DNA from: a virus
Virus record (IMG/VR): IMGVR_UViG_3300017765_000017
DNA length: 33,691 nucleotides
Strand: one strand, 5' to 3'
Every line of letters starts with the position of its first letter. The first letter of the stretch is position 1. Positions 1,592 to 31,275 of this stretch are shown here, in pieces. Made by a program: the position numbers and the translations under genes. The notes under the pieces were generated by a model. That model worked only from the letters and a program-made list of their open reading frames with translations, was not told where the DNA came from and ran no database searches.

Positions 1592-2020
1592 CTATTCCCC
1601 TATCACTTTAAATCTGCTGATCTCAAAATGAGCCACCAGCCCCACATCTTGACTGTCGCCCCGGTCGCGTCTGCCACCAAAGCCAACGTCAAAATCCTCT
1701 GCAAAATTGATCGTTGCAAGTTTGTCAGTCCATTGCACGATCAGATAGCTATCCAGCCCGGTATGCTTTGACAGGTCACGAGCAGCCATCACCTTGTCGA
1801 GGTTGAGCATCATAGTCGGATACCTGTTCATCGGGTTCGTCCTGACCTTGACCTCACAGAAAAACCAGACAAAGCCACTAGCCATTTTGTGCATAGCAAA
1901 GTCCAGCTTGTAACTGATCGGCAGTTTCTTGTAGTCGGCGTTCAGATGCAGCGACACCCTCTCAATGACCTCATGCTCATTACGCAAATCTTGTGCGCTC
2001 TCATATAACGGTCTATTCAT
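1592..2020 (-). CDS. Putative PD-(D/E)XK-fold nuclease-like protein
   Basis: D...E-V-K arrangement (LDFAMH...FFCEVKVR). ATG 2020 overlaps the upstream TGA, with a GGGGGAG RBS. Confidence 0.4.
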   Translation of the reverse strand: MNRPLYESAQDLRNEHEVIERVSLHLNADYKKLPISYKLDFAMHKMASGFVWFFCEVKVRTNPMNRYPTMMLNLDKVMAARDLSKHTGLDSYLIVQWTDKLATINFAEDFDVGFGGRRDRGDSQDVGLVAHFEISRFKVIGE

Positions 2021-2340
2021 CACTCCCCCTTAAACTCATAATCCTGATTATCAGATGTCTTTATCTTGTGACAGTTGGCGCATAGCAGTTGATACACGTC
2101 CTTCGGGTCAGCACCAGCATCAACCATTGAGTTGATGGTGTTTGTGTTCTGCTGACCGTTCATCTTTACCTTGCCATTAGTGCGCCACTGTATCGGCTTG
2201 ATATGGTCAAACTCAAGCACACGATAATCACCGTTACCGCACTCAATGCACGAACCGCCCAAAGCATCTATCGCCAGCCTTCTACGTCTTACCCTTGACC
2301 GCCGTTGCACTGTCCGGCGTTGCTCCGATGTATATGCCAT
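2020..2340 (-). CDS. HNH endonuclease
   Basis: CIECGNGDYRVLEFDHIKP ... LLCANCHKIKT (Cys pairs plus the H-N-H core). I prefer the internal ATG 2340 because it forms a TAATG overlap with the upstream stop. Confidence 0.8.
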   Translation of the reverse strand: MAYTSEQRRTVQRRSRVRRRRLAIDALGGSCIECGNGDYRVLEFDHIKPIQWRTNGKVKMNGQQNTNTINSMVDAGADPKDVYQLLCANCHKIKTSDNQDYEFKGE

Positions 2341-2726
2341 TACGCCCAGCTTTCCCTGACCAACATGCACCACGTTTCAAAGCTGATCGTTGCAAGGTCA
2401 TCCTTGCCAGCATAGTCAGCGTTAATGCTGGACAGTCGCACCACACAGCGTATCGGCTGGCGGTCATATTTGTAGATCAGCACAGGCTCAGTACCAGATG
2501 CGTCACTGGCACGTTCAACCTGTGACCACCACTCATCTTTGTGTGTGACGCCGTGAGCATACCTCTTGGCTTCGACAGTCCAGCCGTCAATGCCAATCAG
2601 GTCGCCGTGGTCTGCGGCTCTGTATTGTTCGATGTCTCTTTTCACATCGTCAATACCCAGTTCGTCCATACACATACGAGCCAATTCGCGTTCAAAATTG
2701 GCACCCTTCCGGCGTCCGTTAGTCAT
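2340..2726 (-). CDS. Holliday-junction resolvase-like nuclease (Hjc / PD-(D/E)XK type)
   Basis: N-terminal RRKGANFERELA followed by D...GIDGWTVEAKRY (D, E-x-K), as in archaeal Hjc-type resolvases. ATGA coupling with the upstream ORF. Confidence 0.6.
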   Translation of the reverse strand: MTNGRRKGANFERELARMCMDELGIDDVKRDIEQYRAADHGDLIGIDGWTVEAKRYAHGVTHKDEWWSQVERASDASGTEPVLIYKYDRQPIRCVVRLSSINADYAGKDDLATISFETWCMLVRESWA

Positions 2727-2962
2727 TTGACCTTCTCCCCATTGCCGCGAAAATCACCCATATCAACGCCGCCCATTAGCTGGCCTTCAGCCAATGACCG
2801 CTTGCTGTACTGACCGTGCTTGTCAGCATCACCTGATGCCGCCGGGTCATCCTCAAAGTTCGGGCAACCCATATTCAATAGTCGCAGCTTTTCAAACTCA
2901 GTCGCGTGGTCAATCGTGTGATTAAACTGGTTCTTATAAAGAATAGATGGTTTTTTAAACAT
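2723..2962 (-). CDS. Hypothetical protein
   Basis: Track ORF, same strand as its neighbours. ATG 2962 is preceded by a GGAGA RBS. Confidence 0.5.
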   Translation of the reverse strand: MFKKPSILYKNQFNHTIDHATEFEKLRLLNMGCPNFEDDPAASGDADKHGQYSKRSLAEGQLMGGVDMGDFRGNGEKVK

Positions 2963-3152
2963 CAAAATCTCCGCACCAATCTTTCAGCCCGACCTTGCCG
3001 CCTGACCACTTATACAACTCCATCATCTTTTGCCCTGATGGTGGTGTCCGATGATAAATCCAGTTATTCACTGACGCTCTTGTGACATTCATAGTCCTTG
3101 CTAGTTCAGACTGTGTAATGCCCCGCATCATCATATATTCTGCCAGTTTCAC
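2955..3152 (-). CDS. Cro/CI-family (XRE/YdaS-like) HTH transcriptional regulator
   Basis: GITQSELARTMNVTRASVNNWI helix-turn-helix. GTG start with an AGGAGA RBS 5 nt upstream. First gene of the leftward operon, facing a divergent promoter region. Confidence 0.75.
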   Translation of the reverse strand: MKLAEYMMMRGITQSELARTMNVTRASVNNWIYHRTPPSGQKMMELYKWSGGKVGLKDWCGDFDV

Positions 3153-3176
3153 TTGGTTCTCCTACAAATATAAATT

Positions 3177-3235
3177 AACATTATGTCAATCTGTATAAAA
3201 TTATTGTTGACAGGTCAAATACTATTTCGTAACAA
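3177..3235. promoter_or_regulatory. Divergent control region: rightward sigma70-like promoter plus TTGAC/GTCAA half-sites and an AACATTATG box
   Basis: TTGACA (3207-3212), a 17-nt spacer, then TAACAA (3230-3235). Inverted TTGAC-ag-GTCAA at 3207-3218, GTCAA at 3185-3189, and AACATTATGTCAAT at 3177-3190. Confidence 0.45.
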
Positions 3236-3271
3236 AGGGTATCAAGCCAATCACGGCCAAGGGAGTTACAA

Positions 3272-4102
3272 ATGGATTTATTAGAAAAAATGAAATCGGT
3301 AGGTGTCTACCATTTCTCACCAAGCCAGTTAAATCGTCCATTGGCGAACTGGATGTTTGAATATGTTTACCTAGCAAAAGAGAAACGCCGCGAGATAATC
3401 GTCGGTGAGAACGCAGCTTTCGGTACTGCCGTGCATACAGTCATACAGGCTGTCGTGTGCCACGGTCAGGACATTGATGAGGCTGTTGAGGAATCTACAA
3501 CAGGTTATGACTTTCACCCTGCAAACTTCTCACAAGATAAGCGTGACAAGTTTCGTGAACTGATACCAGCCGCCGCCAGTGTCGGCATCGACCTACTATC
3601 TCCCTTGTTTGCTGGCGCTCAAGAAGAGCGCAAGATCGAACTGATGCTGGACGGTGTGCTGGTGCCTATTATGGGCTATGTCGATTTGTTTAAGGACGGT
3701 TCACTGGCAGAGATTAAGACCAAGGCACCCCGGCAGGGTCAGGTCAAGAAGGATGGCACTAGAAGCTGGACTAAGGCTTCACTGCCAAAGGAACCAGCGT
3801 GGGAGCATATTATGCAAGCCGCTGTGTATTGGAAGGCCACAGGTGCAACGCCTAACATTGCGTATGTATCGTCTACTGATGGCGTTATCTACAACTCAGA
3901 TAACTGCGAAAAAATGTCAGAGGACGTTCTGAATTTTGCCATTGAGGAGATCCGGCGTAAGGCTATTACCCGGCAGAACTTGTTGGCAGTAAGCACCGAT
4001 CCAAAGGTGCTGGCTGGTTTGATGGAGCCAGACTTCAATCATCCATTCTATTGGGGACATCAATTCGTAAATGATGCAAAGGAGTTATGGAGCAATGTCT
4101 AA
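3272..4102 (+). CDS. PD-(D/E)XK exonuclease (RecB/Cas4-like recombination exonuclease)
   Basis: GYVDLFKDGSLAEIKTK (D...E-x-K) and a downstream QAAVYW (QxxxY) motif. GGGAG RBS. Lies upstream of the annealase gene. Confidence 0.7.
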   Translation: MDLLEKMKSVGVYHFSPSQLNRPLANWMFEYVYLAKEKRREIIVGENAAFGTAVHTVIQAVVCHGQDIDEAVEESTTGYDFHPANFSQDKRDKFRELIPAAASVGIDLLSPLFAGAQEERKIELMLDGVLVPIMGYVDLFKDGSLAEIKTKAPRQGQVKKDGTRSWTKASLPKEPAWEHIMQAAVYWKATGATPNIAYVSSTDGVIYNSDNCEKMSEDVLNFAIEEIRRKAITRQNLLAVSTDPKVLAGLMEPDFNHPFYWGHQFVNDAKELWSNV

Positions 4103-4280
4103 ATATCTATTGATAATGGTCACTCTGACTGGCTTTGAGGATGCAAAGGTGGATGTCATTGGTACATTTGACACTATCTCTGAATGTCACGTTGCAAAGA
4201 CTACGACTACGTTCAAGCAAAATCCTGATAACTATTTCTGCTTTACTACACGCCGTGGCGTAGATTGGAGTGTCAAATGA
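4095..4280 (+). CDS. Small hypothetical protein with a hydrophobic N-terminus
   Basis: Internal ATG 4095 with a GGAG RBS (MSKYLLIMVTLTGF...). ATGA overlap with the next gene. Confidence 0.45.
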   Translation: MSKYLLIMVTLTGFEDAKVDVIGTFDTISECHVAKTTTTFKQNPDNYFCFTTRRGVDWSVK

Positions 4281-4975
4281 GTAATGTATGGGAAACACTG
4301 AGCAAGATTGATTGCTCAAAGCATGTCGAAAAGAAAAACGGTTTTACCTACCTGTCGTGGGCGTGGGCTTGGACTATTCTCAAGCAGCACTACCCGACAG
4401 CACAGGTAACAAAGCATCTGTTCCAAGTGAACGGCAACCAACTGCCGTACATGCTGGACGCAGACGGTCACGCATATGTGACTGTTACGGTCAAGATTAT
4501 GCCAGAGGGTAACGCAAGTGCTGTCACCCCACTGGAATCAGCTACAGAGATTATGCCTGTACTGAATCACGCTAATCGTCCAATCAAGAACCCGAACAGC
4601 TTTGAGGTCAATGCCTCACTGCAACGCTGTATGGTCAAGGCAATCGCCTTGCTGGGTCTTGGTTGCTACATTTACGCTGGCGAGGATTTGCCAGCAACGT
4701 CTGACGCTGGTGGTGGGAGCAGCCTTCCACGCAAGCCAGCAGCGGGGCGTACCCCATCGTCAAACACTTCCGAAACTTGTGATGAGAATACCTCTAGCGG
4801 CGGTGGGGTACAGAAGCCCAAAAAGATTGCGTCTCCTCTTACAGAAGAGCAGGAGATTGCAATGGCCCCAGACAGAGAATCTCTCAGAAGTTTGTATGTG
4901 AGAATGGGGCCTAAAGCGAAAGACTTTAATTATCTATTCACTAAACGTTTAAAGGAGTTAGAAGCTAATGGCTGA
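4277..4975 (+). CDS. Rad52-like single-strand annealing protein (Sak / DUF1071 type)
   Basis: GFTYLSWAWAWTILKQHYP is the hallmark N-terminal motif of the Sak/DUF1071 annealases. A low-complexity Gly/Ser/Pro C-terminal tail follows. Confidence 0.7.
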   Translation: MSNVWETLSKIDCSKHVEKKNGFTYLSWAWAWTILKQHYPTAQVTKHLFQVNGNQLPYMLDADGHAYVTVTVKIMPEGNASAVTPLESATEIMPVLNHANRPIKNPNSFEVNASLQRCMVKAIALLGLGCYIYAGEDLPATSDAGGGSSLPRKPAAGRTPSSNTSETCDENTSSGGGVQKPKKIASPLTEEQEIAMAPDRESLRSLYVRMGPKAKDFNYLFTKRLKELEANG

Positions 4976-5222
4976 TTACGACAACAATATGCGGGGCGTA
5001 CTGTTCCCGAATGACAAGGGCGACAACCCAAAGCGTCCTGACATGACAGGCAATCTTGAAATCGAGGGTACGAAATACAGGGTATCTGCTTGGCAAAAAA
5101 CTAGCCAAAAAGGCACTGATTTTCTGTCCTTCGTGGTTGAAGAGGACGATGGGTCACGTCGTGCGGCACCGCAGCAAAATGGTGCCAATAATGAGCCATT
5201 AAATGACAGCATCCCCTTTTAA
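4968..5222 (+). CDS. Small SSB-slot protein: DUF736-like core with an SSB-type acidic C-terminal tip (..NDSIPF)
   Basis: YRVSAWQKTSQKGTDFLSFVVEEDD resembles the DUF736 core as I recall it. The last residues, D-S-I-P-F, mimic the bacterial SSB tip DDDIPF. Confidence 0.5.
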   Translation: MADYDNNMRGVLFPNDKGDNPKRPDMTGNLEIEGTKYRVSAWQKTSQKGTDFLSFVVEEDDGSRRAAPQQNGANNEPLNDSIPF

Positions 5223-5391
5223 GATCACCGTTGTAACTGATGGCCTCATTGTCCAGACGGATGATGAGGTCTATCGGGTGACGATGGACAAGGATGAAAT
5301 GATGAAGCTGTCAACGGAGATACTGTTGATGCTTACACAGAAAATGCGCGACAAAAGCAGTATGAATGGTTCTGGATATGTGGCCGGGTAA
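5203..5391 (+). CDS. Hypothetical protein
   Basis: 62-aa track ORF in the operon orientation. The start overlaps the upstream gene by 20 nt, so the exact start is uncertain. Confidence 0.4.
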   Translation: MTASPFKITVVTDGLIVQTDDEVYRVTMDKDEMMKLSTEILLMLTQKMRDKSSMNGSGYVAG

Positions 5392-5590
5392 GAAACGTAC
5401 CAAAACAGTAACGGTGAAACGCACGGTCAGGCCGGGTACATGCAGCTCTTGTGGCAAGGGATTTGATTGGAACATAGACCCCGGCATTGTGAACGGGGCA
5501 AAAAAGGAGTTTTGTGGACATGAATGTTTTCGGGAAAATATTGAAAAAGTGGTTCGGCACGACTACGGCGAGGACTTTGACAGCCTCTGA
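5366..5590 (+). CDS. Small zinc-finger protein (CxxC ... FCGHEC, FCS/TRASH-like)
   Basis: CSSCGKGF...KKEFCGHECF gives four Cys in CxxC/CxxxC spacing. Alternative start at ATG 5378. Confidence 0.5.
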   Translation: MVLDMWPGKKRTKTVTVKRTVRPGTCSSCGKGFDWNIDPGIVNGAKKEFCGHECFRENIEKVVRHDYGEDFDSL

Positions 5591-5906
5591 GATTGAGGCA
5601 CCAAAGCATCACTGCTTGCCGCCGATGGAGCGCATTATACGCGCTACATGCACAGTGACTGGCATTACTAGGAATGAGTTGCTGTCAGGTCGTAGGCCAG
5701 CAGAGTTTGTACATGCGCGGCATATCGCTATGTATCTGGCTCGTGAGTATACGACACTAAGCCTTCCTCAGATTGGTCGGGCGATGAACAAGGATCACAC
5801 AACGGTTCATTACGTTGCTAATAAGATGGCGAAGCGTGGCCGTGGTGCAACCAAAGTGAATCGTGACCTTGCCGCTGTAAAGAAGGCCGCTGGGTTAGAT
5901 GGCTGA
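5514..5906 (+). CDS. Stand-alone DnaA domain IV-like DNA-binding protein
   Basis: VHARHIAMYLAREYTTLSLPQIGRAMNKDHTTVHYVANKM matches the DnaA C-terminal HTH signature (R..AMYL....SL..IG.....DHTTV). The start is ambiguous: GTG 5514, ATG 5520 or ATG 5625. Confidence 0.75.
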   Translation: MDMNVFGKILKKWFGTTTARTLTASEIEAPKHHCLPPMERIIRATCTVTGITRNELLSGRRPAEFVHARHIAMYLAREYTTLSLPQIGRAMNKDHTTVHYVANKMAKRGRGATKVNRDLAAVKKAAGLDG

Positions 5907-6126
5907 CGATTTCGTTAATCACCCACCGCATTACAAGCAGGGTGACATAGAGTGTATTGATGCTATAAAGGCTGCACTTGGAGATGGCTACAAATACTAT
6001 CTTCAAGGCAGTATTATCAAGTATATCTGGAGATTTGAACATAAGCAGAATCCCGTTCAAGACTTACAGAAATCATCTTGGTATTTAGACAAACTTATAG
6101 CGGAAATACAGAATGGCGAGAACTAG
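5899..6126 (+). CDS. DUF3310-family protein
   Basis: NHPPHYKQGDIECIDAI...KYIWRFEHK is the characteristic DUF3310 pattern. Confidence 0.65.
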   Translation: MADDFVNHPPHYKQGDIECIDAIKAALGDGYKYYLQGSIIKYIWRFEHKQNPVQDLQKSSWYLDKLIAEIQNGEN

Positions 6127-6610
6127 GCATGTTGCCGTCAAATTTATTGGTCAAACTGTAGCCGGGCAAATCGGTGAACACATAGCAGCCGCCGCAATCT
6201 TACAGCAAGGTTGGGGCGTTGCTCTTGCCACTCAGGATTCTGTTGACTTAGTGGCTTGGAACAAGGACACCGGACAACGCCTTCTTATACAAGTAAAATC
6301 CGCTCAGATCAGTAGAAACAGTCGAAACAAATTAGAGTTTCAACTTGGCCTTGGCGGAAATAAACGCTTACCAACGCGCTATGATTTTGACATAATGGCT
6401 CTCGTTTCAAGCGAACAACGAGCGTGTTACTTTCTACCTGTAACAGCTATCAAACAGAAAAAGATGAATCGCAGCACTGGGTTTTTTGAGAACCCAGAGT
6501 TAGAAGCAGATTCTTGGCAAAAAGCAATAGAGGAACTTTATTATGAACCTACCAAACAGAAGACCTTGCGTGACCACAGACATTGGAGCCGGGCTGGCAG
6601 TGACAGTTAG
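6113..6610 (+). CDS. PD-(D/E)XK endonuclease (free-standing, intron-associated-type fold)
   Basis: GEHIAAAAILQQGWGVALATQDSVDLVAW...LLIQVKS gives the D-x-D...Q-V-K catalytic arrangement. Confidence 0.55.
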   Translation: MARTRHVAVKFIGQTVAGQIGEHIAAAAILQQGWGVALATQDSVDLVAWNKDTGQRLLIQVKSAQISRNSRNKLEFQLGLGGNKRLPTRYDFDIMALVSSEQRACYFLPVTAIKQKKMNRSTGFFENPELEADSWQKAIEELYYEPTKQKTLRDHRHWSRAGSDS

Positions 6611-6764
6611 CTTTCACCCGCATACAGGCGAGGCAGTTGAGGTATTTATGACTGGCCGTGGCAAGGCCAGCGACAACACACTTACTGAGGCACTGTACCA
6701 GTTAGGCGTAACGGCTTCTAAGCTGATGCAGGGCGAACATGATGAGGCTGAAGCAGTAGCATGA
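6543..6764 (+). CDS. Hypothetical protein (possibly TSCPD-like)
   Basis: 73-aa ORF with ATGA coupling to the endolysin gene. EVFMTGRGKASD...LGVTASKLMQG loosely recalls the TSCPD domain. It overlaps the upstream gene by 68 nt, so the start is uncertain. Confidence 0.35.
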   Translation: MNLPNRRPCVTTDIGAGLAVTVSFHPHTGEAVEVFMTGRGKASDNTLTEALYQLGVTASKLMQGEHDEAEAVA

Positions 6765-7210
6765 AACTAGACGTACTCAGGGACGAAATTACGGCTGATG
6801 AAGGCTGTAAATACGAGATATATTTCGATCATCTAGATCTGCCCACAATGGGTATCGGGCATTTAATTAAGGTCGAAGACCCTGAGTACGGTAGGCCTGT
6901 AGGCACCAAGATCACACAAGAACGTGTGCATCAGGCGTTTAATCTGGACATCCTCGTTACAATAGAAGACTGCCGCCGTCTGTATTCTGATTGGGATACA
7001 TTCGGTGATGAGTTGCAGCACATCATTGCTAATATGATGTTTAATCTTGGCTATCCGCGTTTGGAGCGTTTTCGTAACATGCGAGAAGCTGTCAACGAAA
7101 AAGACTACGAAAAAGCGGCAGATGAAATGATAGACAGCAAGTGGTACACTCAGGTTCCGAATCGCGCAGAGCGGTTAGTGAAACGTATGAGAGAACTGGC
7201 TGATGGGTGA
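6761..7210 (+). CDS. Endolysin, T4-lysozyme-like (GH24 muramidase)
   Basis: ADEGCKYEIYFDHLDLPTMGIGHLI aligns with T4 lysozyme (E11 / D20 / T26, TIGIGHLL). Confidence 0.8.
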   Translation: MKLDVLRDEITADEGCKYEIYFDHLDLPTMGIGHLIKVEDPEYGRPVGTKITQERVHQAFNLDILVTIEDCRRLYSDWDTFGDELQHIIANMMFNLGYPRLERFRNMREAVNEKDYEKAADEMIDSKWYTQVPNRAERLVKRMRELADG

Positions 7211-7412
7211 AGTAACAATGGAGCGGTTTCTTCGCTGGAAGATACTGCCCCGGCTAATGATGGTAGCCTTTACGTTAATGGCTTGGAACGTCTGTGACTG
7301 GTTTATGTCACTGGGCGTTGACGCAACAACACAACAAACAGCTTTCGTAAGCACCATAGTCGGAGCGGCTACTGGTGCTTTTGCTGTATGGATGGGACAC
7401 GAAGCAAAATGA
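7203..7412 (+). CDS. Two-TMD membrane protein (holin/antiholin candidate)
   Basis: Two hydrophobic helices (ILPRLMMVAFTLMAWNV and TAFVSTIVGAATGAFAVWMG). Sits between the endolysin and the 3TM holin. Confidence 0.5.
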   Translation: MGEVTMERFLRWKILPRLMMVAFTLMAWNVCDWFMSLGVDATTQQTAFVSTIVGAATGAFAVWMGHEAK

Positions 7413-7804
7413 TACAGGCACTGGTAGGCCCGGTTACAGGGCTGCTGGACAAGTTTATCGAAGACAAAGACCAGAAGAACAAGCTGGCTCACGAACTGGC
7501 TACAATGGCCGACAAACACGCTCAAGAGCTTGCCAAGGGTCAGCTAGAGGTAAACAAGGTAGAGGCCGCTCACAGGTCGCTGTTCGTCGCTGGTTGGCGT
7601 CCTTTTATCGGCTGGACATGCGGCGTTGCTCTGATGGCGCATTTTGTGCTGTTTCCGGCTACTGACTTTGTTGTGGCTTATATGGGCTACGATATACCAC
7701 CGATGCCAGCTTTTGATATGGAAAGCCTGATGACTGTGCTGCTTGGTATGCTGGGTCTGGGCGGTATGCGTAGCTTTGAGAAGATGAAGGGTGTGTCTAA
7801 GTAA
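7409..7804 (+). CDS. Holin of the GTA_holin_3TM type
   Basis: QLEVNKVEAAHRSLFVAGWRPFIGWTCG followed by hydrophobic helices matches my recollection of the gene-transfer-agent holin family. ATG 7409 forms an ATGA overlap. Confidence 0.6.
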   Translation: MIQALVGPVTGLLDKFIEDKDQKNKLAHELATMADKHAQELAKGQLEVNKVEAAHRSLFVAGWRPFIGWTCGVALMAHFVLFPATDFVVAYMGYDIPPMPAFDMESLMTVLLGMLGLGGMRSFEKMKGVSK

Positions 7805-8410: not shown

Positions 8411-8578
8411 CTATGAAAGGGAATAGCTTTCCTCTTTCCGTTCTACCCAACTCAACGCGGCGTTGCAAGCATTAAACGTCAATACTTCCACCAATTCGTT
8501 TTCGTCAAATATCTTTACTATGCACTCACCCATCGGGCTTGTCTGCTCAATCTCGTGCCGAATCCTTGGCTCCCACAT
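8411..8578 (-). CDS. Small hypothetical protein (55 aa, below the track cutoff)
   Basis: ATG 8578 preceded by AGGAGA plus 5 nt. Translates as MWEPRIRHEIEQTSPMGECIVKIFDENELVEVLTFNACNAALSWVERKEESYSLS. Last ORF before the late terminator. Confidence 0.5.
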   Translation of the reverse strand: MWEPRIRHEIEQTSPMGECIVKIFDENELVEVLTFNACNAALSWVERKEESYSLS

Positions 8579-13449: not shown

Positions 13450-15153
13450 CTACTGTTCTGCTAGTAGACCAGCGGGTACACCAGATACCGATGGCATAGC
13501 TGCTGCTCTTTGCATAGCAACGCCGGGAACCTGTAACGCTTTCCTAGCAACCTCAGTGCCTAAACGACCTGTCCTATATATAGCTGGCAAAGCTACACCC
13601 GCAACCGTTGTAACGGCGGGAGCAGCCGCCCCAGCCAAGCCAACTGGCAACAAACCAGCTAATCTAGCAAAAGACATATCCTGTACAGGCTTATCTACTG
13701 GCGCACGACCTGTGCCAAGCACATCAATATACTCTTTAGCCAACTGAGCCTGTGAGCGCTCCATATATGTCGGCCCAAACTGCTTCTCAAGCTGTCTACG
13801 ATACTGTTCTGGCGAGAATATATCCGCACCAGTTGCAGACTTTTGCAATGAACGGATGTCACGATTTACGTCACGGACACGCTTAAACTCATCCGCATTT
13901 TTAGCTTTAGACTGTATGTAGTCTAAGAAATCTTCTCTATAAGCAAACAAGGCTTTGCCTATTTTTCTGTCAGCCGCTCCACCTGACATTTTCGCAGTAG
14001 CAATATCTCCAAGCTGAGAAACCGCATCTTGCATCATATCGCCTGTCATAGCATTATCTTCAATTCTGCTAATAACGGCATCATCAATTTCTTCTTTGAA
14101 AGCACTAAAATCTTTTTCTCTAAGTTTGTATTTCTTTCTGAATCTGTTTATGTTTTCAGGTGTTTTTAATGACATAAAGTCTTTTACAACACCACCAGTT
14201 ACAGGCAGTGACGACTTTCCGACTGCTTTCTTGAACTGCTTATCTGCAAAAATCTTAGCTTGGTTCACCGCTTCAGTCAGAGGTTCGTCTAAGTCAACTT
14301 TGTAACCAAGAGGCTTCATAACATTTTCTACAGCTTCAACATTAAACTGCTCAAATGCTCTACGCTGTGCTTGCGGTATGCCAGCAATCTCACCTAATGC
14401 TGTACGACCTAAAAGACCTTCTACATAACCTGTACCACTGCCTAAAGCCTGACCGGGTGTCAAAGGAACCTTCTTAGCAAGAAGACCAGCTACAGGCTCT
14501 TTTACAGCGCCTATAACAGCGGGTAATGCTGCTCCGCCAGCGGCTAATGTTCCGGCAATACCAGCGCCTATCCCAGCGCCAACGCCACGTTCCGCTAAGT
14601 CACCTTCAGTGCCAAGAAACCCATATGTTGCTCCACCAGCGGCAGGGGCCAATAAACGTGGCAATAACTTGGCACCAGCAAGTCTAGCGCCAGCGGCAAT
14701 ACCTGTAGGCAGTGAACCAGCTATCTCTGCTGTTAATGCAGATGCTGGGTACTCTTCTTTGAACTCTTTACGCTTTGCTTCAAACTCGCCCATACCAGCT
14801 TGAAACTCTGGCATAAACTCTTCGCCGCGCAAAGCAGCCATAGCGCCTCTACCAGCGCCGACAAGTTCACCAGCGCCGCCGAATGTAAGACCCTGCGCTA
14901 ACTCTCTTGCAACGCCGGGTATGAACTTTGCACCAGCAGCCTTGGCCTCTGCTGTGGCCTCGCCAGTAAACTCATCTGGCATATACATCATCTGCTGCTT
15001 AGCGGTAGGCGCACCTGATGGCTTTGTCGCTTTCACTGCTGGTTTTTGCTGTTGTAGACGTTTAATCTCACCAGCAAGAACACGGGCGTCTTCTGTGTTA
15101 CCAGCCTCATGCGCCTTCATAAACGCCGCTTTTAGTCTGTCTAAATCAGCCAC
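13450..15153 (-). CDS. Internal virion / ejection-type protein (Ala/Gly-rich with glycine-zipper segments)
   Basis: 567 aa. GVGAGIGAGIAGTLAAGGAALPAVIGAV-type hydrophobic Gly-zippers. Position between the tail and fibre genes. Confidence 0.5.
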   Translation of the reverse strand: MADLDRLKAAFMKAHEAGNTEDARVLAGEIKRLQQQKPAVKATKPSGAPTAKQQMMYMPDEFTGEATAEAKAAGAKFIPGVARELAQGLTFGGAGELVGAGRGAMAALRGEEFMPEFQAGMGEFEAKRKEFKEEYPASALTAEIAGSLPTGIAAGARLAGAKLLPRLLAPAAGGATYGFLGTEGDLAERGVGAGIGAGIAGTLAAGGAALPAVIGAVKEPVAGLLAKKVPLTPGQALGSGTGYVEGLLGRTALGEIAGIPQAQRRAFEQFNVEAVENVMKPLGYKVDLDEPLTEAVNQAKIFADKQFKKAVGKSSLPVTGGVVKDFMSLKTPENINRFRKKYKLREKDFSAFKEEIDDAVISRIEDNAMTGDMMQDAVSQLGDIATAKMSGGAADRKIGKALFAYREDFLDYIQSKAKNADEFKRVRDVNRDIRSLQKSATGADIFSPEQYRRQLEKQFGPTYMERSQAQLAKEYIDVLGTGRAPVDKPVQDMSFARLAGLLPVGLAGAAAPAVTTVAGVALPAIYRTGRLGTEVARKALQVPGVAMQRAAAMPSVSGVPAGLLAEQ

Positions 15154-16678: not shown

Positions 16679-17428
16679 CTAACCTAACAAGCCTAAGCCA
16701 GCGCCAATAAGAGCGCCGGTGCCGCCACCGAAGCCAGCCATCTGGCCCAGTTCTGCACCAGCTAAACCAGCGCCAAGGATGCTTGTAAGTGGCTGACGCT
16801 GTTGCGCTTCGTAAGTCGTCTGACCCATTTCACCGCCACGAACAGCCGCAAGATACTGCTGCAACTTATCTTGTGGCCGGGCTTGCTCAAACTGGAACCG
16901 TTCAATATCAGCACCCAACTCTGCTTGCTGTTGAGCCTCACGAGCCGCACCAACACCAGCCAATGTCTCAAGGTCAGCAAAGCCAAACTGACGCGCCGCT
17001 GGTGCCTGTGCAATCGCCTGTTGCTGTGCTTGCAACGCCATTGGTGCCAGCGCCTGTGCCAATGCAGCTTGCTGATAGCCAGAACCGTAACGGCCAGCCT
17101 TAGATGCTTCTGCCTGTACTTGCTCAACTACCGGGCGAAAAGCGGCTGATTGCAGTGGGTTTGTACCCATTAGGTTCTGCATCACGACATCTTGTACGCC
17201 TTGAATGAACGGGCTGCCAGTGATTGCTTGCTGGCGAATACCTTGCAACGCCATCTCTGATTCTGGTGAATAGCCTACAACTGTCTGGCCGGGATAATAT
17301 TGAGGCGCACCAGATTCATAAAGCTGTTTCGCTTGAGAAAGACCATACTCTAGGAATGGCTTTTGAAACGCAGGGGGTTCTACAGAACTTGCCTGTACCT
17401 GTCTTGTGTTGCCGCCGCCTTTGCTCAT
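16679..17428 (-). CDS. Internal virion protein (Gln/Ala-rich, Gly-rich hydrophobic C-terminus)
   Basis: 249 aa, ending ILGAGLAGAELGQMAGFGGGTGALIGAGLGLLG. Three overlapping track ORFs here are composition artefacts. Confidence 0.45.
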   Translation of the reverse strand: MSKGGGNTRQVQASSVEPPAFQKPFLEYGLSQAKQLYESGAPQYYPGQTVVGYSPESEMALQGIRQQAITGSPFIQGVQDVVMQNLMGTNPLQSAAFRPVVEQVQAEASKAGRYGSGYQQAALAQALAPMALQAQQQAIAQAPAARQFGFADLETLAGVGAAREAQQQAELGADIERFQFEQARPQDKLQQYLAAVRGGEMGQTTYEAQQRQPLTSILGAGLAGAELGQMAGFGGGTGALIGAGLGLLG

Positions 17429-25120: not shown

Positions 25121-25121
25121 T

Positions 25122-27134
25122 TTACACTCGCGGCAGGTTGGTTGAGATTTGTGAATCTGTTACAGCTTTCGCCATACGCAACTCAGCTTCGGCTTGCAAC
25201 TCCTGACGGCGTAGTTCCATCTCCATCGTCATTCGCTCACGCTCTAGCTGAATATCGGCTTGCATCTTCTCACGCTTCAACGCCAGTTCTGCTTTCATCT
25301 GCTGCTGCTTCATAGCAATAGCTGGATCTGGCTGTGGTGGCTGCTGCTGTTGTTGCTGTTGCTGCATCTGTATCTGCTGTGGGCTGCTAAAGAACATATC
25401 AGCGTCCTTGAAGCCACCAATCTCAGCAATGCTGCGAAGTGTGTTTACATACTGAGCCATAGTTACAACAGGATTGCTTGGCCCTAACTGCATCAATATC
25501 TGCTCTTGCTTTGCAGCAATCTGTGTCAGGAACGCAATCTTCTGCTCATCATCAGCCGTTCCAAGCCCTACCTGTACTACGACATCGTATTCGCTTGTCC
25601 ACTCACGCGGGTCAATCGGCACAAAGTTATTACGCAAACGCACAATGCGCGGCTTGTTGTCGTACTTTGTGACCAAGTGCAAAATGCCTTTAAATAGCGA
25701 TTTTACGCCTGTCTCAGCCATTGTACGCGCATAGCTTTCCAGCTTTACCTGTGCGCCACGAACTGTCGCACTAATGGCGCTGGCGGTCGTTGACTGCAAC
25801 GCATTTGCATCTAAGCCCTGTGATGCTTTGCTCATGCCTGTACGCTGCTCTTTGATGTTGTCCAGATAATCCATCAAAGGCCGTACTTCTCCGCCTACAG
25901 GTGTGCCTGTAATGGCTTGCACCATACCGGGCTGACGAGCGCGAATGATGCCGCCAGCAGTACCCTCAAGCAAATCATCTAGATTCACCTGACCTTCAAC
26001 AGCAACCATACGAGGCAGTGTGCTGGTGTAAACGCTGTCCAGATACTGACGCATCAGTGTTGACTTGATAACCTGTAGGTCTTCAGTCATGTCGTAGATA
26101 CTGCGGCCAATCAGGCGGTGTGGCATCAATACTGGCGATACCACAGCAAACGGCACATGATCGAATGGCTCGTTATGCAGAATGTGTGTGCCTTCAGCAC
26201 CGATAGCACAGATACGGCGGCGTTCAGCAATGCCATCACCGTCATAATCAACCTTCATAATGCACTCGTAGTACACGACCTCGCGCAATGTCGGGTCAGC
26301 CGCGTCAGTGCCTGTATTAGCTTCTAAATCTTGGAAACGATTTGTGCGTTCTTCATCAACATCCAGATCTGACAAACCAGCGTGTGCCTCTACCTCTTCG
26401 CGGTCATAGCCCATAGCTACCAAGTCTGACACTGTCATTGTAGTGCGGTGGGCAACGAAATACGCCTCATCTAAGCTGGTAGCACGGCGATTAACCAGAA
26501 ACTCTTCCGGCGGTACGTTTATGACCTTAATCTTGCCTTTACGCTCCGTAACACGCACAGACAGATCATACGAACTTTCAAGAGGCACCACCGTTCCGTC
26601 ATCTTCCATATACGAATTAACAACGGTTTCTTGCTGCTCAACCACTTCAACATCTGGGTTAGCCAGTAATACGGCAAGTTCGTTTTCATCAAGCCCGTTA
26701 TATTCTTCCTCAGTGACATTTTCTTCCTCTTCATAGAAATACTTGACCACACCAAGACGAAACAACAAGGCGTCCTTGAACCAGTTATACAGGATTTTAT
26801 AGCCTTCATTGTCGTGGTTGATTATGTAATTTACATAGTCACTGACTTGCTCTGCACGTTCCATATCCTCTGCCGTGCGAGCGCTAAAACGTACATATTT
26901 GTCATTGGCTGTGAAGACGCGCATCAGGTTGGGCATAATAGCCTCAACTGTGTCTGCGACTTCTGTGCTTACTACAGATGATCTACCCTCTACCTCGTTG
27001 CCGAATGGCTCGCCAAGGTAGAAGTCCATAGCGCGAATACGCTCTTGAGAAAACTCACTGTCAAAGTGGTTCAGCGCATCGGTAATTTCCGAAGAAACAA
27101 TGCTATTAAGTTTGTAATCATCCATATCTGGCAT
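25122..27134 (-). CDS. Portal protein
   Basis: About 670 aa. Position between the terminase region and the scaffold/capsid genes. Long C-terminal poly-Q plus coiled-coil extension. ATG 27134 with a GAAGGAAAAG RBS is preferred over 27164. Confidence 0.75.
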   Translation of the reverse strand: MPDMDDYKLNSIVSSEITDALNHFDSEFSQERIRAMDFYLGEPFGNEVEGRSSVVSTEVADTVEAIMPNLMRVFTANDKYVRFSARTAEDMERAEQVSDYVNYIINHDNEGYKILYNWFKDALLFRLGVVKYFYEEEENVTEEEYNGLDENELAVLLANPDVEVVEQQETVVNSYMEDDGTVVPLESSYDLSVRVTERKGKIKVINVPPEEFLVNRRATSLDEAYFVAHRTTMTVSDLVAMGYDREEVEAHAGLSDLDVDEERTNRFQDLEANTGTDAADPTLREVVYYECIMKVDYDGDGIAERRRICAIGAEGTHILHNEPFDHVPFAVVSPVLMPHRLIGRSIYDMTEDLQVIKSTLMRQYLDSVYTSTLPRMVAVEGQVNLDDLLEGTAGGIIRARQPGMVQAITGTPVGGEVRPLMDYLDNIKEQRTGMSKASQGLDANALQSTTASAISATVRGAQVKLESYARTMAETGVKSLFKGILHLVTKYDNKPRIVRLRNNFVPIDPREWTSEYDVVVQVGLGTADDEQKIAFLTQIAAKQEQILMQLGPSNPVVTMAQYVNTLRSIAEIGGFKDADMFFSSPQQIQMQQQQQQQQPPQPDPAIAMKQQQMKAELALKREKMQADIQLERERMTMEMELRRQELQAEAELRMAKAVTDSQISTNLPRV

Positions 27135-27135
27135 A

Positions 27136-27357
27136 TTACTTTTCCTTCGGCTTCTTACGCCCATACATGCAAGTGCCGCTGGCCTTACACATCTTTTTAG
27201 CTACACAACCTTTACAGGCAGAAAAGCCAACATTTTCAACAGCTTCTAATACCGCAGATGCTGAAACGGAAGCCGTCACTTTCGCTTGGGCTTCCTTGCT
27301 TAATTGCAGTGGCCTACGACGCTGTGTGCGTGGCCGCATCATCACTCGTGTGTACAT
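27136..27357 (-). CDS. Tiny basic Cys-containing protein G
   Basis: MYTRVMMRPRTQRRRP...FSACKGCVAKKMCKASGTCMYGRKKPKEK. Coupled start and stop. Confidence 0.55.
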   Translation of the reverse strand: MYTRVMMRPRTQRRRPLQLSKEAQAKVTASVSASAVLEAVENVGFSACKGCVAKKMCKASGTCMYGRKKPKEK

Positions 27358-27969: not shown

Positions 27970-28142
27970 TACGCTTTCCTTACACGATTGTCTGAGCCGC
28001 CCCACTTGCCGCCACGTTCTTTGTACCACTTTGCCGCATAAGCATTAGCGTAAGCTGACGGGTAAACATCAAACTTACGCTTTGCTGCTGCTATGGCTTT
28101 TTTCCACAGAGCGGGGTTTTTTGGAACTGATTTGCCAGCCAT
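27969..28142 (-). CDS. Tiny basic protein C (57 aa, not in the track; YPSAYANAYAAKWYKERGG motif)
   Basis: My own translation from ATG 28142: MAGKSVPKNPALWKKAIAAAKRKFDVYPSAYANAYAAKWYKERGGKWGGSDNRVRKA, with TAA at 27971-27969. Confidence 0.6.
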   Translation of the reverse strand: MAGKSVPKNPALWKKAIAAAKRKFDVYPSAYANAYAAKWYKERGGKWGGSDNRVRKA

Positions 28143-28182
28143 TACTTACCGTAACCTTTGCCTTTTTTCTTTCCGTATCCCA

Positions 28183-28359
28183 TTATGTCCTCTTTCTGGC
28201 CTTCTTTTTGGCCGTTTCTGAAAGTTCACCAAAATGGTACAGCCGAACAGAATTTGCTGTATGCTTTGAGCCGCTATGCAAAGAACCGTCAGGCATCTTG
28301 TGCATACCGCCAGCATACTTTGTACCATCACGAAGATAATGCGCTACACCTTTTGCCAT
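28183..28359 (-). CDS. Tiny basic protein B (MHKMPDGSLHSG motif)
   Basis: ATG 28359 (TAATG overlap) or ATG 28365. Lys/Arg C-terminal tail KKKARKRT. Confidence 0.5.
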   Translation of the reverse strand: MAKGVAHYLRDGTKYAGGMHKMPDGSLHSGSKHTANSVRLYHFGELSETAKKKARKRT

Positions 28360-28640
28360 TACCATTTCACCTTATTAGCCCAATAGGCCGCTGAACATTT
28401 ACCTTTGGCAATATTTTTCGCATGTCTTGCTTTGAAGGACTTGCGCCTCGCTTTTTCAGCCATCGTGCGAGGGTTTTTGCCGGCACCGCTAACGCCTTGC
28501 TGACCAAACCTGATTGTCTTAACGCTACCGTCTTCGCATTTTGCCACGACAACGTGGCTCTTTTTAGGATGATTAGGGGTGCGTTTGGGCTTATTATAGC
28601 CAGATACACCAGCGCGTTCCAGCCGTGGATCTCTAGGCAT
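28359..28640 (-). CDS. Small basic protein A (..KSHVVVAK..IRFGQQG..SAAYWANKVKW)
   Basis: 93-aa track ORF. Its start overlaps the upstream stop in ATGCCTAG. Confidence 0.6.
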   Translation of the reverse strand: MPRDPRLERAGVSGYNKPKRTPNHPKKSHVVVAKCEDGSVKTIRFGQQGVSGAGKNPRTMAEKARRKSFKARHAKNIAKGKCSAAYWANKVKW

Positions 28641-28920
28641 CGTATTTAACCTCTTGCACCTTCACGGATTCAAACGTGTCTTCAATCTCTTCCGTAGACA
28701 GCCCGGCTCTCAAGCCAGCATTAACTGCTACAGACATAGCCGCGTCCATCACATGCTGCCATTTTGCGTCAGAAGTGACAATAAGTCCAGCAGTGTGCAT
28801 TTCCATCATCACCACAATGGCCTCGACCATCTCTTCATATTCTTCCTGAGTTTCTTCCAACTCAACCTCAACGTCAATTTCTAAGCCGCGCTTCGGAAAC
28901 TTCAGAATATTGTCAGTCAT
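28633..28920 (-). CDS. Small acidic protein
   Basis: ATG 28920 forms an ATGA overlap with the TerL stop. Contains EIDVEVELEETQEEYEEMVEAI. Confidence 0.55.
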   Translation of the reverse strand: MTDNILKFPKRGLEIDVEVELEETQEEYEEMVEAIVVMMEMHTAGLIVTSDAKWQHVMDAAMSVAVNAGLRAGLSTEEIEDTFESVKVQEVKYDA

Positions 28921-30314
28921 ACTACCCATCCTGTGTTTGGTTTAAGACTGCGCTTGCTACTATACCCTCTAGAGTAGCCTCCTGCAATCGCACCGCTTTC
29001 AGCAAAACTCAAAACAAACGCATCAGCCACATCCGGGCTACGCTGGCCCCTACGTTTCATCTCATCTTTGCTTTCTACCTTCAGTTTACCATTAGACAGA
29101 TATTTATACCTAATGCCAGTGATCTCCTGTATCAAAGTCGCATCATTCGGGATGTTGCAATCCCTTGCCTCAAACCATTCACGGGCGTTCCAAAACAACT
29201 CATCTCTCAGCCGATTAAACCGCTCCTTCAAACTAGCAGTCTCCGACACAGAAATTGCAACGGCTGGTAAATCCAACTCGCGCAACCTGTCAGCCAAGCC
29301 AGCACCAATGCCAATAGCATCAATAAATATGCTTTGAGGACGCAACCGATATGTAGTTGCCTCAAACTCAGACAGCACAATACCAGCCATCTCCATCAAA
29401 TCACGACCCTGATACGTCTTAATCGGCTCCAGAAGCACATTATCCTGACGCTTGGCTATGGCACTCCTATCACCGCCGAATCTTGCAACGTCCACGCCCC
29501 AAACTACAGGTGCCGTGGGTGACGCTTCGACATCTCTCTTAGTCGCTTCTTCCACAAGATGTAGCGGTAACAAGACATCATCCGACTGGGTAGGGAACTG
29601 ACCCAAGACACGAACTCTGTAAACATTGCTATCTTCACCGTATTTTTCCTTCATATTTTCCAAGAACTGCTCAGAAACAGTCGTGGCATCGTGGCAACTT
29701 ACCGTCATAGTAAACCAGTTTTTACGCTGGCTATGATGGCTCTCATAGAAAAAACCCTCAGAACGTGTGGGGTTTCCGCACATTACCGTCTTAGCGCCGG
29801 GGGTAGACATAGCGCCTTCACCGACCTGAAAGACAACATCGGGAATACCTGACGCCTCTTCGCACAAAAACAGCATATTCTCTGAGTGAAAGCCTTGCAG
29901 AGCTTCTGGGTTCTCACGTCTGCTGGTTCTTGCAACGGCAAAGCTATCTGACGCACCCTTCAAGCTAATCTTGTCGCTCTTAAACTCTAGCAACTGCTTG
30001 AAACCTTCCGGCAACTGACGCGCCCATTTGTCGATCTCAGTCCACAGCACATCACTCAACTGGTGCGCCGTGTTCGCCGTAACAGCAACTTTGCACGGAT
30101 AATGCGTTATCAGCCACCACAGCACGAGCCAGCTTTGAAATGCAGTCTTACCAACACCGTGACCAGATGCAATGCTCACCTTGTCATTGTTGCCTACCGC
30201 CCTCAACGCTTCGGCTTGCCACGGCTGGGGTGTCACCTTCAAAATGCTCTCAACGAATAGAACCGGGTCGTTGTGCAGCTTTACGAGCAGATCAGTGTTT
30301 TCGGTTTTTTTCAC
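28917..30314 (-). CDS. terL: Terminase large subunit
   Basis: Walker A SGHGVGKTA near the N-terminus. 465 aa. ATGA-type overlap with the small subunit gene upstream. Confidence 0.85.
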   Translation of the reverse strand: MKKTENTDLLVKLHNDPVLFVESILKVTPQPWQAEALRAVGNNDKVSIASGHGVGKTAFQSWLVLWWLITHYPCKVAVTANTAHQLSDVLWTEIDKWARQLPEGFKQLLEFKSDKISLKGASDSFAVARTSRRENPEALQGFHSENMLFLCEEASGIPDVVFQVGEGAMSTPGAKTVMCGNPTRSEGFFYESHHSQRKNWFTMTVSCHDATTVSEQFLENMKEKYGEDSNVYRVRVLGQFPTQSDDVLLPLHLVEEATKRDVEASPTAPVVWGVDVARFGGDRSAIAKRQDNVLLEPIKTYQGRDLMEMAGIVLSEFEATTYRLRPQSIFIDAIGIGAGLADRLRELDLPAVAISVSETASLKERFNRLRDELFWNAREWFEARDCNIPNDATLIQEITGIRYKYLSNGKLKVESKDEMKRRGQRSPDVADAFVLSFAESGAIAGGYSRGYSSKRSLKPNTGWVV

Positions 30315-30778
30315 TTCTCTTCAGCCTCGCCCTCAATGGTCTTGTCAGCTAGTCGCTGTTGCTCTATCTGCGCTGCCGCCAGCTTCAACTCATCAACAAA
30401 GCTGACGACCTTATGCTCATGCTCGACCTTCTGGTTCTCGCCGTACAGCTTAGGATACAGCTTTGCCGCTCGCCACTTGTAGGTGTCGATGACCACACGC
30501 GCTTGCTGGGCATCCAACTCGCCGTACTTCATCTGCTCAATAGCGTCGTCAATGTCATCATCAATCTTCTGCGCTCGCAGTTCCATCGCAACACGATACT
30601 TGTCGCGGAACTCGCCGTCATCACGCAGCCATTTGCTGATAGTGGGAAACGTAGGCAACTTGCCACTAGAACACGCCTTACGCGCTGACAGGCCGTCAGA
30701 CACCAGTTCTATGAACAAATCTTTCTGTTCGGCCATCTGTGCGCCAGATATGGGCGCGGGGCCTCTTTTCTTCGGCAT
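30311..30778 (-). CDS. terS: Terminase small subunit
   Basis: N-terminal HTH-like region (FIELVSDGLSARKACS), then DAQQARVVIDTYKWRAAKLYPKLYGE, typical of TerS families. AAGGAG RBS. Confidence 0.7.
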   Translation of the reverse strand: MPKKRGPAPISGAQMAEQKDLFIELVSDGLSARKACSSGKLPTFPTISKWLRDDGEFRDKYRVAMELRAQKIDDDIDDAIEQMKYGELDAQQARVVIDTYKWRAAKLYPKLYGENQKVEHEHKVVSFVDELKLAAAQIEQQRLADKTIEGEAEEK

Positions 30779-30845
30779 ATCTCACTCCTTATTTGCCAAA
30801 TAACATCTTTAGTTTAGCAGTGCAAGAAAACTTGCAACGAATTTT

Positions 30846-30906
30846 GGGTGGCAGGGACGTTTTGGGTGGGGGAGATTGAAGGGGGGGGTGAGAGGGTGAG
30901 AGAGGG
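30846..30906 (+). repeat. G-rich arm with a G-quadruplex-type run pattern on the + strand
   Basis: TTTTGGGTGG occurs twice (30842, 30860). A G8 run lies at 30881-30888. GGGGGGGGTGAGAGGGTGAGAGAGGG gives four G3 runs with loops of 7 nt or less. Confidence 0.8.
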
Positions 30907-31011
30907 ACTATTATATATTTATGCCGCCCCCCGCGCAGATTTGATGGGGGGGTGTGGTATCATAGCACCACATGCCGGGATGTTTTAACGTGTTAGCACA
31001 TGAACACGGCC

Positions 31012-31050
31012 AACATTATGCGACAAAGATAATAAACATTATGCGACAAA
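31012..31050 (+). repeat. Two direct 16-bp repeats AACATTATGCGACAAA (iteron/operator candidates)
   Basis: Copies at 31012-31027 and 31035-31050, 23 bp start to start. Confidence 0.9.
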
Positions 31051-31186
31051 ACAAATCGCGCTAGGCTGCGCTGTGACGGCTTGCAACGACTGCCGATGAC
31101 GGATCATACACGGCGGCACCCAAAGCCAGCCAGTGGCCTTCCTATGGCCTTTCGTGCGCGTTGTGGTATTTTATTACCGTATGACG

Positions 31187-31235
31187 CCCTCACCCCCACC
31201 ACCCTCACCCATTCACCCACAACCACCACCACCAC
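31187..31235 (-). repeat. C-rich arm (G-quadruplex-type pattern on the - strand), an imperfect mirror of the G-rich arm
   Basis: + strand CCCTCACCCCCACCACCCTCACCCATTCACCC. The reverse complement GGGTGAATGGGTGAGGGTGGTGGGGGTGAGGG shares GGGTGAG units with 30846-30906. Confidence 0.8.
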
Positions 31236-31275
31236 AAAAAACCGCTAGCCGTTGCAAGATTTTTGCGTTTTCTGT

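Follow-up and report, generated by a model that had tools for sequence, protein, structure and literature searches.

A polar nine-nucleotide motif that reverses orientation at the probable genome termini of an uncultured virus

Results

A 9-mer maintained by selection on the DNA

The stretch of DNA analysed here, referred to as the window, comprises all 33,691 nucleotides of the virus record IMGVR_UViG_3300017765_000017 and carries a 9-mer, CTTGCAACG, that is strongly over-represented and reverses its orientation within a non-coding region, the hub, located between the terminase genes and the early genes. The window is a circular assembly bearing an exact terminal direct repeat of 123 nt (1-123 = 33569-33691), with a true unit of 33568 bp and a guanine-plus-cytosine (G+C) content of 47.6%. 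One side of the hub is occupied by a minus-strand block extending from 30778 down to 9667, which encodes the small and large terminase subunits (TerS and TerL) followed by portal, scaffold, capsid, tail and ejection proteins. On the other side lie the early genes, a minus-strand module with a replication initiator (Rep) gene and a plus-strand module in which a Cas4-like exonuclease, Sak and SSB are encoded together with lysozyme and holin. The nucleases encoded in the window also include HNH, PDDEXK_14 and PDDEXK_5 proteins (Table 1).

An exact recount agreed with the preliminary description of this DNA on every copy of the underlying 8-mer, which occurs on the plus strand as TTGCAACG at 14907, 17030, 17243, 29255, 29483, 29930, 30832 and 31081 and as CGTTGCAA at 1712, 2388, 4190, 8461 and 31250, with no further copies. 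Eleven of these 13 copies extend to the 9-mer, as had been reported. Compared to Markov models of orders 0-4, the 11 occurrences of CTTGCAACG/CGTTGCAAG face 0.24-0.76 expected ones, an excess of about 20-fold if an expectation of ~0.5 is taken, and CTTGCAACG is the top over-represented 9-mer of the genome (ln P ~ -25; the runner-up reaches ~ -12.6). Codon-preserving shuffles (2 x 1000, with proteins and codon usage kept and the three non-coding copies held fixed) produced a mean of 4.1-4.4 and a maximum of nine copies of the 8-mer, compared to the 13 observed. The motif is a strict 9-mer, because its 27 one-mismatch variants, with 15 copies in total, remain at background and show no polarity. 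The flanks of the copies are not conserved, and six of the 13 copies lie at most 2 kb away from the hub (binomial P = 0.002).

The ten coding copies occupy the four codon registers originally listed, that is VAR/VAI/VAK, ALQ, LAT and ACN, while the remaining three are non-coding. At the conserved AVAR, DVAR, ALQ and AVAI positions of terL, the motif results from the choice among synonymous codons; where a lineage lacks the motif, these amino acids are unchanged but encoded by other codons. At the DVAR site (29482..29490), 39 of 81 aligned terL sequences (the window plus 80 loci) carry the motif; in other lineages the residues are kept and the codons differ. Selection on the DNA itself maintains CTTGCAACG.

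The motif points towards the hub from both sides

On either side of the hub, the arrow 5'-CTTGCAACG-3' runs towards it regardless of the direction of transcription. The two contiguous blocks of orientation proposed earlier for the circular map were recovered for all 13 window copies, and one of the two switches indeed lies inside the hub at 31089-31249. The probability that 13 randomly oriented copies on a circle form no more than two runs is 0.019. The 7-mer behaves as previously stated, with 16 of its 17 copies obeying the rule and a single offender at 29154.

The polarity extends to related phages, for which 183 loci were fetched by four protein anchors and several long contigs were rebuilt. 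Of 23 site classes at positions absent from the window, 20 obey the rule. When exact 9-mers were anchored on a conserved core element of the hub described below, the late side of the relatives yielded 14 classes with 126 occurrences in a single orientation and the early side five classes with 22 occurrences, all in the opposite one. Likewise, every motif-bearing locus anchored on terL has one orientation upstream of the hub and the other from the hub into the late genes. The independence from transcription that had been noted was also borne out, as early-block sites sit in genes of both strands and orientation disagrees with transcription at at least 10 positions in the Rep, Sak and lysis modules. 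In the lineage L058, Rep, a TerS-like gene, the hub, an inserted open reading frame (ORF) of 450 aa and terL are all encoded on one strand; the motif nevertheless flips at the hub, and its orientation is the same on both sides of the Rep iterons.

The second switch had been placed roughly diametrically opposite the hub, which did not hold: in four rebuilt relatives it lies at ~4190 to ~4620, where the exonuclease gene adjoins the Sak gene, in ordinary coding DNA devoid of origin-like features. The blocks hence measure ~6.6 kb and ~26.5 kb, i.e. ~20% and ~80% of the genome, and given this position of the switch in the relatives, the window copy at 8461 is an outlier. The earlier proposal of a motif polar with respect to an origin or to DNA ends was upheld as to polarity set by position, and a reference to the ends remains the best fit. 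Its symmetric geometry of an origin and an opposite terminus found no support, because the blocks divide the genome at ~20% to 80% and no flip occurs at the iteron origin of L058.

As a separate observation on L058, the segment 6869-8652 contains the Rep gene with four iterons GGTGTCACAGAGACACC, followed by the TerS-like gene on the same strand and by the hub. The 450-aa ORF, which has no annotated function and is inserted before terL, bears three copies of the motif.

The hub most likely corresponds to the genome termini

The hub contains a core element consisting, on the minus strand, of a C-run, a short spacer, a G-run and ATATATA. Throughout the family, relatives with and without the motif alike have this core upstream of terS or terL. 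A repeated element, TTATGCGACAAA, present in one or two copies (31012-31050 in the window), is similarly conserved upstream of terL whether or not the motif is present, and the hub has an AT-rich patch besides these direct repeats. In the Sinorhizobium phage phiM5 (L321 315-357), a comparable arrangement, CCCCCCCCC..GGGGG..ATATATC, falls exactly where the direct terminal repeat of 357 bp has its annotated right edge, and terL follows after 36 nt. The terminal repeats of phage tf, 186 bp in length, lie beside terS, in the same relative place as the hub.

Because the core matches the edge of the phiM5 repeat and tf has the same layout, the hub most likely represents the genome termini rather than an origin, and we infer that the terminase cut site lies within it, probably together with a short direct terminal repeat. 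The flip occurs on the early side at 177-337 nt from the core element, which would be a plausible length for a terminal repeat. The starts of five IMG/VR contigs, no more than 45 nt away from the core element, are weak evidence in the same direction. The core could mark the termini by sequence throughout this phage group.

The motif is a lineage-specific overlay

The nearest GenBank record is "Phage C72C1" (no host recorded), whose TerL is 79% identical and which has one motif copy. More distant relatives are phiM5 (TerL 45%), the OM43 phage Venkman and the pelagiphage HTVC106P (portal ~42%), and the tf/LUZ24 group (portal 34-36%). A tblastn search of GenBank phages with TerL and portal as queries revealed no close relative in culture, and contigs with exact protein matches were phage contigs from seawater metagenomes only. 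IMG/VR holds more than 400 relatives, many of which, from their sample identifiers, we take to be estuarine or marine. The family appears to consist of uncultured estuarine or marine podoviruses whose head and terminase modules are related to those of phiM5, tf and LUZ24.

Motif density among the relatives varies with base composition. It reaches ~2.9 per 10 kb at a G+C content of 0.46-0.50, is near background at 0.52 (~0.5 per 10 kb) and is zero at 0.44 or below, including a clade with 83-86% TerL identity and a G+C content of 0.38-0.44. Some lineages of similar G+C content likewise lack the motif, and relatives with the same hub core and a TerL that is ~78-86% identical do without it. The motif is a lineage-specific overlay on this family. 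An alternative polar word was sought in the motif-less sister clades, and none stood above noise; the candidate CCGTATACG in L039-48 was rejected as a local palindromic operator pair.

Phage-encoded candidates for a reader of the motif

Several phage proteins were considered as readers of the motif. TerS was rejected: it is 36-100% identical among motif-bearing phages (36-40% in some motif-rich ones) and 66-71% in motif-less phages, and the terS sequence does not co-vary with the motif. The Rep initiator was dismissed as well, since its module is found in only 13 loci and is variable among motif-bearing phages; the rep gene of the window has no iterons. The protein consisting of DnaA domain IV only occurs in both classes with the same RDHTTV motif, and L083 and L085 encode identical versions of it, which excluded it too. 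DnaA boxes are not in excess in the genome, nor does CTTGCAACG match their consensus TTATNCACA. Independently of its role as a candidate reader, the DnaA domain-IV protein is conserved family-wide with or without the motif, and the hub repeat TTATGCGACAAA is a possible target for it.

An all-against-all comparison of 12 motif-bearing and 10 motif-poor contigs revealed no gene family that cleanly separates the two classes. The best partial association was obtained for the PDDEXK_15/RusA-like gene, as contigs with a homologue at least 70% identical have 2.4 motif copies per 10 kb, compared to 0.31 otherwise; this may mark only a shared gene pool. The protein had no match in PDB or NCBIfam.

Apart from its association with the motif, the PDDEXK_15/RusA-like protein is 92-100% identical in relatives in which the genes next to it reach only 40-80% identity, which suggests a recent sweep or unusual constraint.

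Table 1 Motif copies, hub elements and genes of the window
Feature	Position	Strand	Remarks
CTTGCAACG copy	1712..1720	-	in PDDEXK_14 gene 1592-2023(-), codons LAT
CTTGCAACG copy	2388..2396	-	in PDDEXK_15/RusA-like gene 2340-2726(-), codons LAT
8-mer copy TTTGCAACG	4190..4197	-	in small ORF 4071-4280(+), exonuclease/Sak interval; last early-block site in relatives
CTTGCAACG copy	8461..8469	-	in small ORF 8411-8578(-); outlier to the block rule given the relatives
CTTGCAACG copy	14906..14914	+	in tail/structural gene 13450-15153(-), sense codons GVAR
CTTGCAACG copy	17029..17037	+	in gene 16679-17428(-), sense codons ALQ
CTTGCAACG copy	17242..17250	+	in gene 16679-17428(-), sense codons ALQ
8-mer copy ATTGCAACG	29255..29262	+	in terL, sense codons AVAI; synonymous codon choice; kept in many relatives
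CTTGCAACG copy	29482..29490	+	in terL, sense codons DVAR
CTTGCAACG copy	29929..29937	+	in terL, sense codons AVAR
CTTGCAACG copy	30831..30839	+	non-coding, 53 nt upstream of the terS start codon
CTTGCAACG copy	31080..31088	+	non-coding, hub; last rightward-pointing copy
CTTGCAACG copy	31250..31258	-	non-coding, hub; first copy of the opposite block
Non-coding hub	30779-31341		563 bp, from terS(-) to first early gene(+)
Family-wide hub core	30908..30952	-	minus-strand reading: C-run, ATCAAATCT, GCGCGGGGGG, then ATAAATATATAAT
Two exact 16-nt direct repeats AACATTATGCGACAAA	31012-31027 and 31035-31050
Candidate span of short direct terminal repeat (~180-340 bp)	30908..31249		from core element to polarity flip
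Early genes	31342-685 (through circle junction)	+
Replication initiator (Rep) gene	763-1590	-	same minus-strand module: PDDEXK, HNH and RusA-like/PDDEXK_15 genes
PDDEXK_14 gene	1592-2023	-
PDDEXK_15/RusA-like gene	2340-2726	-
Cas4-like exonuclease	3272-4102	+	in plus-strand module
Sak	4265-4975	+
SSB	4968-5222	+
DnaA domain-IV-only protein	5514-5906	+	130 aa; RDHTTV motif; TIGR00362 E = 8e-21
Portal gene	25122-27164	-
terL, terminase large subunit	28917-30314	-	3 motif copies; 45% identical to phiM5 TerL
terS, terminase small subunit	30311-30778	-	PHROG 1482; Pfam Sf6_terminase in identical contig

Discussion

A possible Chi-like signal facing both DNA ends

Among the readings suggested at the outset, a Chi-type signal referred to the DNA ends is still the best fit, and we tentatively favour the view that CTTGCAACG could be read as a Chi-like signal by the RecBCD or AddAB enzyme of the host. 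The orientation of the motif would then be set by the physical ends of the phage chromosome, with 5'-CTTGCAACG-3' pointing outward to the nearer end on both arms. A host helicase-nuclease of the RecBCD or AddAB type, which enters at DNA ends, would load at either end of the linear DNA, whether injected or newly cut, and would meet CTTGCAACG from its 3' side within a few hundred bases. Recognition may switch the enzyme from degradation to recombination or repair, so that the genome would be protected and end-to-end joining favoured. The sole wrongly oriented copy would be the duplicate of the 31081 site that the terminal repeat generates at the right end. A host-read signal referred to the ends is suggested because the motif is oriented outward at both presumed ends, clusters at the termini and has a distribution linked to G+C content with no phage-encoded reader. 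In addition, no homologue of Gam, Abc2 or gp5.9 was found among the annotated ORFs, and this absence of anti-RecBCD genes supports a Chi-like role.

Phages that have accumulated the Chi word of their host have been described (Genome Res 2025, PMC12315714; see also the earlier work of Bobay et al. 2013, PMC3784561), namely the E. coli phage LLS and its relatives and the Pseudomonas phage MD8. In LLS, 20 of 23 Chi sites are in the RecBCD-active orientation and clustered near one end, and in MD8 the orientations are distributed 32 vs 0 (PMC12315714). The window shares with these phages a short asymmetric word that occurs far above expectation, is clustered at the terminus and is specific to a lineage or host. 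Many copies, an orientation active from the end and terminal clustering are likewise found here, the end being placed at the hub by comparison with phiM5 and tf. Unlike the sites in the Chi-rich phages, those in the window face both ends and not one.

A number of observations weigh against a Chi-like role. To our knowledge, a word of 9 nt exceeds any described Chi in length; moreover, the motif is not G-rich and does not resemble the Chi of E. coli, Haemophilus, Bacillus, Lactococcus, S. aureus or Pseudomonas, and none of these known Chi words is enriched in the genome. The phage, a podovirus that probably has terminal repeats, also has its own Rec module, comprising the Cas4-like exonuclease, Sak and SSB, whereas in lambdoid phages abundant Chi accompanies the absence of such a module (PMC12315714). 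Just one correctly oriented window copy lies within 1.5 kb of the early end, and orientation is kept 14-16 kb from the ends, where end protection alone should select little. The association with the PDDEXK_15/RusA-like gene could point to a reader encoded by the phage. The host was not identified: a TerL scan of a genome collection gave only weak matches to metagenome-assembled genomes (MAGs), and a metagenome scan for close motif pairs showed, among the matches listed, no dispersed enrichment of the motif.

Alternative explanations

The main alternative, which we consider rather unlikely, is that CTTGCAACG may be the site of a phage-encoded nickase, and that the packaged DNA would contain single-strand interruptions with the nicked strand differing by arm. 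Localised nick sites are known from T5, the phiKMV group and the tf/LUZ24 group, and in tf the consensus TACT/RTGMC marks physical nicks in virion DNA, the function of which was not known (PMC3517423). Phage tf shares the head module with the window (portal 34%, capsid 34%) and, like it, has early and late operons flanking the termini. In an identical k-mer test, its nick consensus gave almost the same statistical signature, being the top word with 11 exact copies vs 0.24 expected. Both cases thus involve a strict asymmetric 9-mer with ~11-14 copies vs less than one expected, a strand rule independent of transcription and positions partly conserved among relatives. Furthermore, the site sequence co-varies among relatives in the nicked phages, and the half of their genome with the most sites is believed to enter the capsid ahead of the rest; in the window, sites are most abundant on the terS/terL side. 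The partial tracking of motif density by the PDDEXK_15 gene and the presence of HNH, PDDEXK_14 and PDDEXK_5 genes also fit a nickase. However, all described nick sites lie on a single strand (for tf, 14 on the top and 0 on the bottom strand, independent of transcription), whereas the window has eight plus- and five minus-strand copies that switch strand at the hub and ~6.6 kb away, and the orientation flips at the hub in every lineage. The tf sites are absent from the terminal repeat and its vicinity, which is where the motif clusters in the window. No nuclease family is present in all motif-bearing and in none of the motif-less relatives, none of the nucleases is common to the window and tf, the motif-less sister lineages yielded no variant word, and the link to G+C content is more simply explained by the host.

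The remaining explanations appear less probable still. Orientation kept 15 kb from the ends and a strand switch at the terminal repeat would both be explained by a guide directed to the termini, and it is unlikely, if conceivable, that the motif is an as yet undescribed polar code referred to the ends of a terminal-repeat podovirus and read neither as Chi nor by a single-strand nickase. Such a code might guide a translocase, a resection factor or a replication-restart factor to the termini from anywhere in the genome. In another reading, to which we assign a low probability, the motif would resemble the FtsK orienting polar sequences (KOPS) and SpoIIIE recognition sequences (SRS) of bacteria and would serve a translocase or another phage process directed at the hub, steering an enzyme loaded anywhere on replicating or concatemeric DNA to the site of packaging or of the terminus. 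In all lineages the arrows on both sides run towards the hub and keep their orientation far from it, which fits guidance across the whole genome better than protection of ends; KOPS and SRS are, similarly, polar words of 8-9 nt, with one block for each orientation and both blocks converging on a single locus. Those words are G-rich octamers (GGGNAGGG or GAGAAGGG) read by FtsK or SpoIIIE and converging on dif, and they belong to bacterial chromosomes with equal halves diverging from the origin, unlike the ~20/80 split found here in a genome without an FtsK-type motor. The KOPS-like identity entertained in the preliminary description was not sustained, given that the motif is not G-rich and that KOPS occurs once and SRS not at all, neither being enriched; no evidence for a dif-like site or for Xer was obtained, no search for either having been made. 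TerL is the only candidate translocase encoded, relatives with the same hub core and no motif indicate that the latter is not needed for packaging, and we know of no such system in phages. Two contiguous blocks on a circular map, direct repeats and an AT-rich patch in the hub and a DnaA domain-IV protein would also suit a leading-strand word in a genome with its origin at one switch and its terminus at the other. This replichore organisation is very unlikely, however, as the blocks are not halves, the second switch lacks origin-like features, DnaA boxes are not in excess, orientation is unchanged across the four iterons of the L058 Rep gene and the hub core matches the edge of a terminal repeat and not an origin. 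Even less probable, in our estimate, is a transcription element, such as a -35-like TTGCAA or an operator whose intragenic copies are incidental or decoys. The three non-coding copies do lie near the starts of two divergent operons, two of them as an inverted pair, and an unrelated IMG/VR contig (L307) has the same 9-mer in a repeated intergenic unit before ORFs. Yet 10 of the 13 copies are intragenic and nevertheless under selection at the DNA level, orientation and transcription mismatch as described above, the motif is not used as a hexamer in a simple promoter scan, and the flanking sequences show no conservation. Strongly disfavoured already is the absence of any function, i.e. chance, shared ancestry of the sites or a side effect of codon context. 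It would be compatible with a P of only ~0.02 for two blocks in the window alone, with the non-independence of counts in relatives and with recurrent sites in the few amino-acid contexts that permit the word. On the other hand, the enrichment survives Markov models and codon-preserving shuffles, one-mismatch variants stay at background, site classes at new positions keep the polarity, and sister lineages with the same proteins lack the motif.

Three further classes of repeated signal were considered and rejected. Repeats of the pac or cos type, which TerS binds on both sides of the cut and which packaging requires, do not agree with copies dispersed genome-wide, with a hub core kept by motif-less relatives and with a TerS identity of 36-100% among motif bearers. 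DNA uptake sequences (DUS) or uptake signal sequences (USS), over-represented 9-12-mers that lack positional polarity and often form inverted pairs at terminators, were discarded on account of the strict block polarity, the unconserved flanks and the lack of terminator-type hairpins; the only inverted pairs of motif copies are formed by widely spaced hub copies with 155 and 410 nt between the arms. DnaA boxes or origin iterons were set aside given the missing match to TTATNCACA, the variable Rep module and the unchanged orientation at the iteron origin of L058.

Implications

If the motif is Chi-like, an uncultured host from marine or estuarine waters would have its first Chi candidate, and this host could be found by counting the 9-mer in MAGs, which would amount to a phage-host pairing from sequence only. 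The concept of Chi-rich phages would moreover be extended from recombinase-less lambdoid phages to a Sak-bearing podovirus, probably with terminal repeats, and to sites that face both ends. If it marks nicks instead, a change of the nicked strand along the genome would be described for the first time, which would constrain the function of phage nicks. Either way, the polarity flip should predict the physical termini of assembled circular contigs from sequence in this abundant group.

Other repeated words in the window, its relatives and metagenomes

A literature search for the 8/9-mer sequence and for C72C1 returned nothing useful. The matches listed in the metagenome scan for close motif pairs comprised tandem arrays and a CRISPR repeat, GTTGCAAGCCTACC...; the contigs L415, L341 and L365 contain CRISPR-like arrays with a period of ~67 nt and a repeat starting with GTTGCAAGCCTACCTATGAGGGATTGAAAT, in which the match to the motif is accidental. 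In the corresponding scan of IMG/VR, the matches listed were tandem or hairpin repeats in unrelated contigs. One of these contigs, L307 (G+C 60%), has CTTGCAACG seven times on one strand within 2472-7631, in hairpin-like units of the form CCGCG-CTTGCAACG-CGG located ~25 nt before ORFs that start with MES... This repeat is a promoter- or leader-like element and a different phenomenon.

In the window itself, a second 8-mer, TGCCTGTA, is over-represented with 14 copies vs ~2 expected, codon-preserving shuffles included. Eleven of the copies are on the plus strand (4554, 8837, 11869, 17111, 17390, 20266, 21164, 21603, 25835, 25904 and 26309) and three on the minus strand (7413, 14200 and 27213). 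This word is enriched in the same relatives as CTTGCAACG, yet it shows no flip at the hub.

Among the relatives, the low-G+C, motif-less clade L043-L048 has one or two operator-like palindromes of 14 bp, AACCGTATACGGAA, located ~1250-1670 nt upstream of terL. The genomes of Venkman and phiM5 contain no comparable polar 9-mer. In Venkman (L320, a Methylophilales phage, MT375522), the palindrome GTTTAAAC occurs 34 times vs ~2 expected; 12 of these 34 copies are embedded in the longer palindrome TGTTTAAACA, and several are positioned at gene boundaries.

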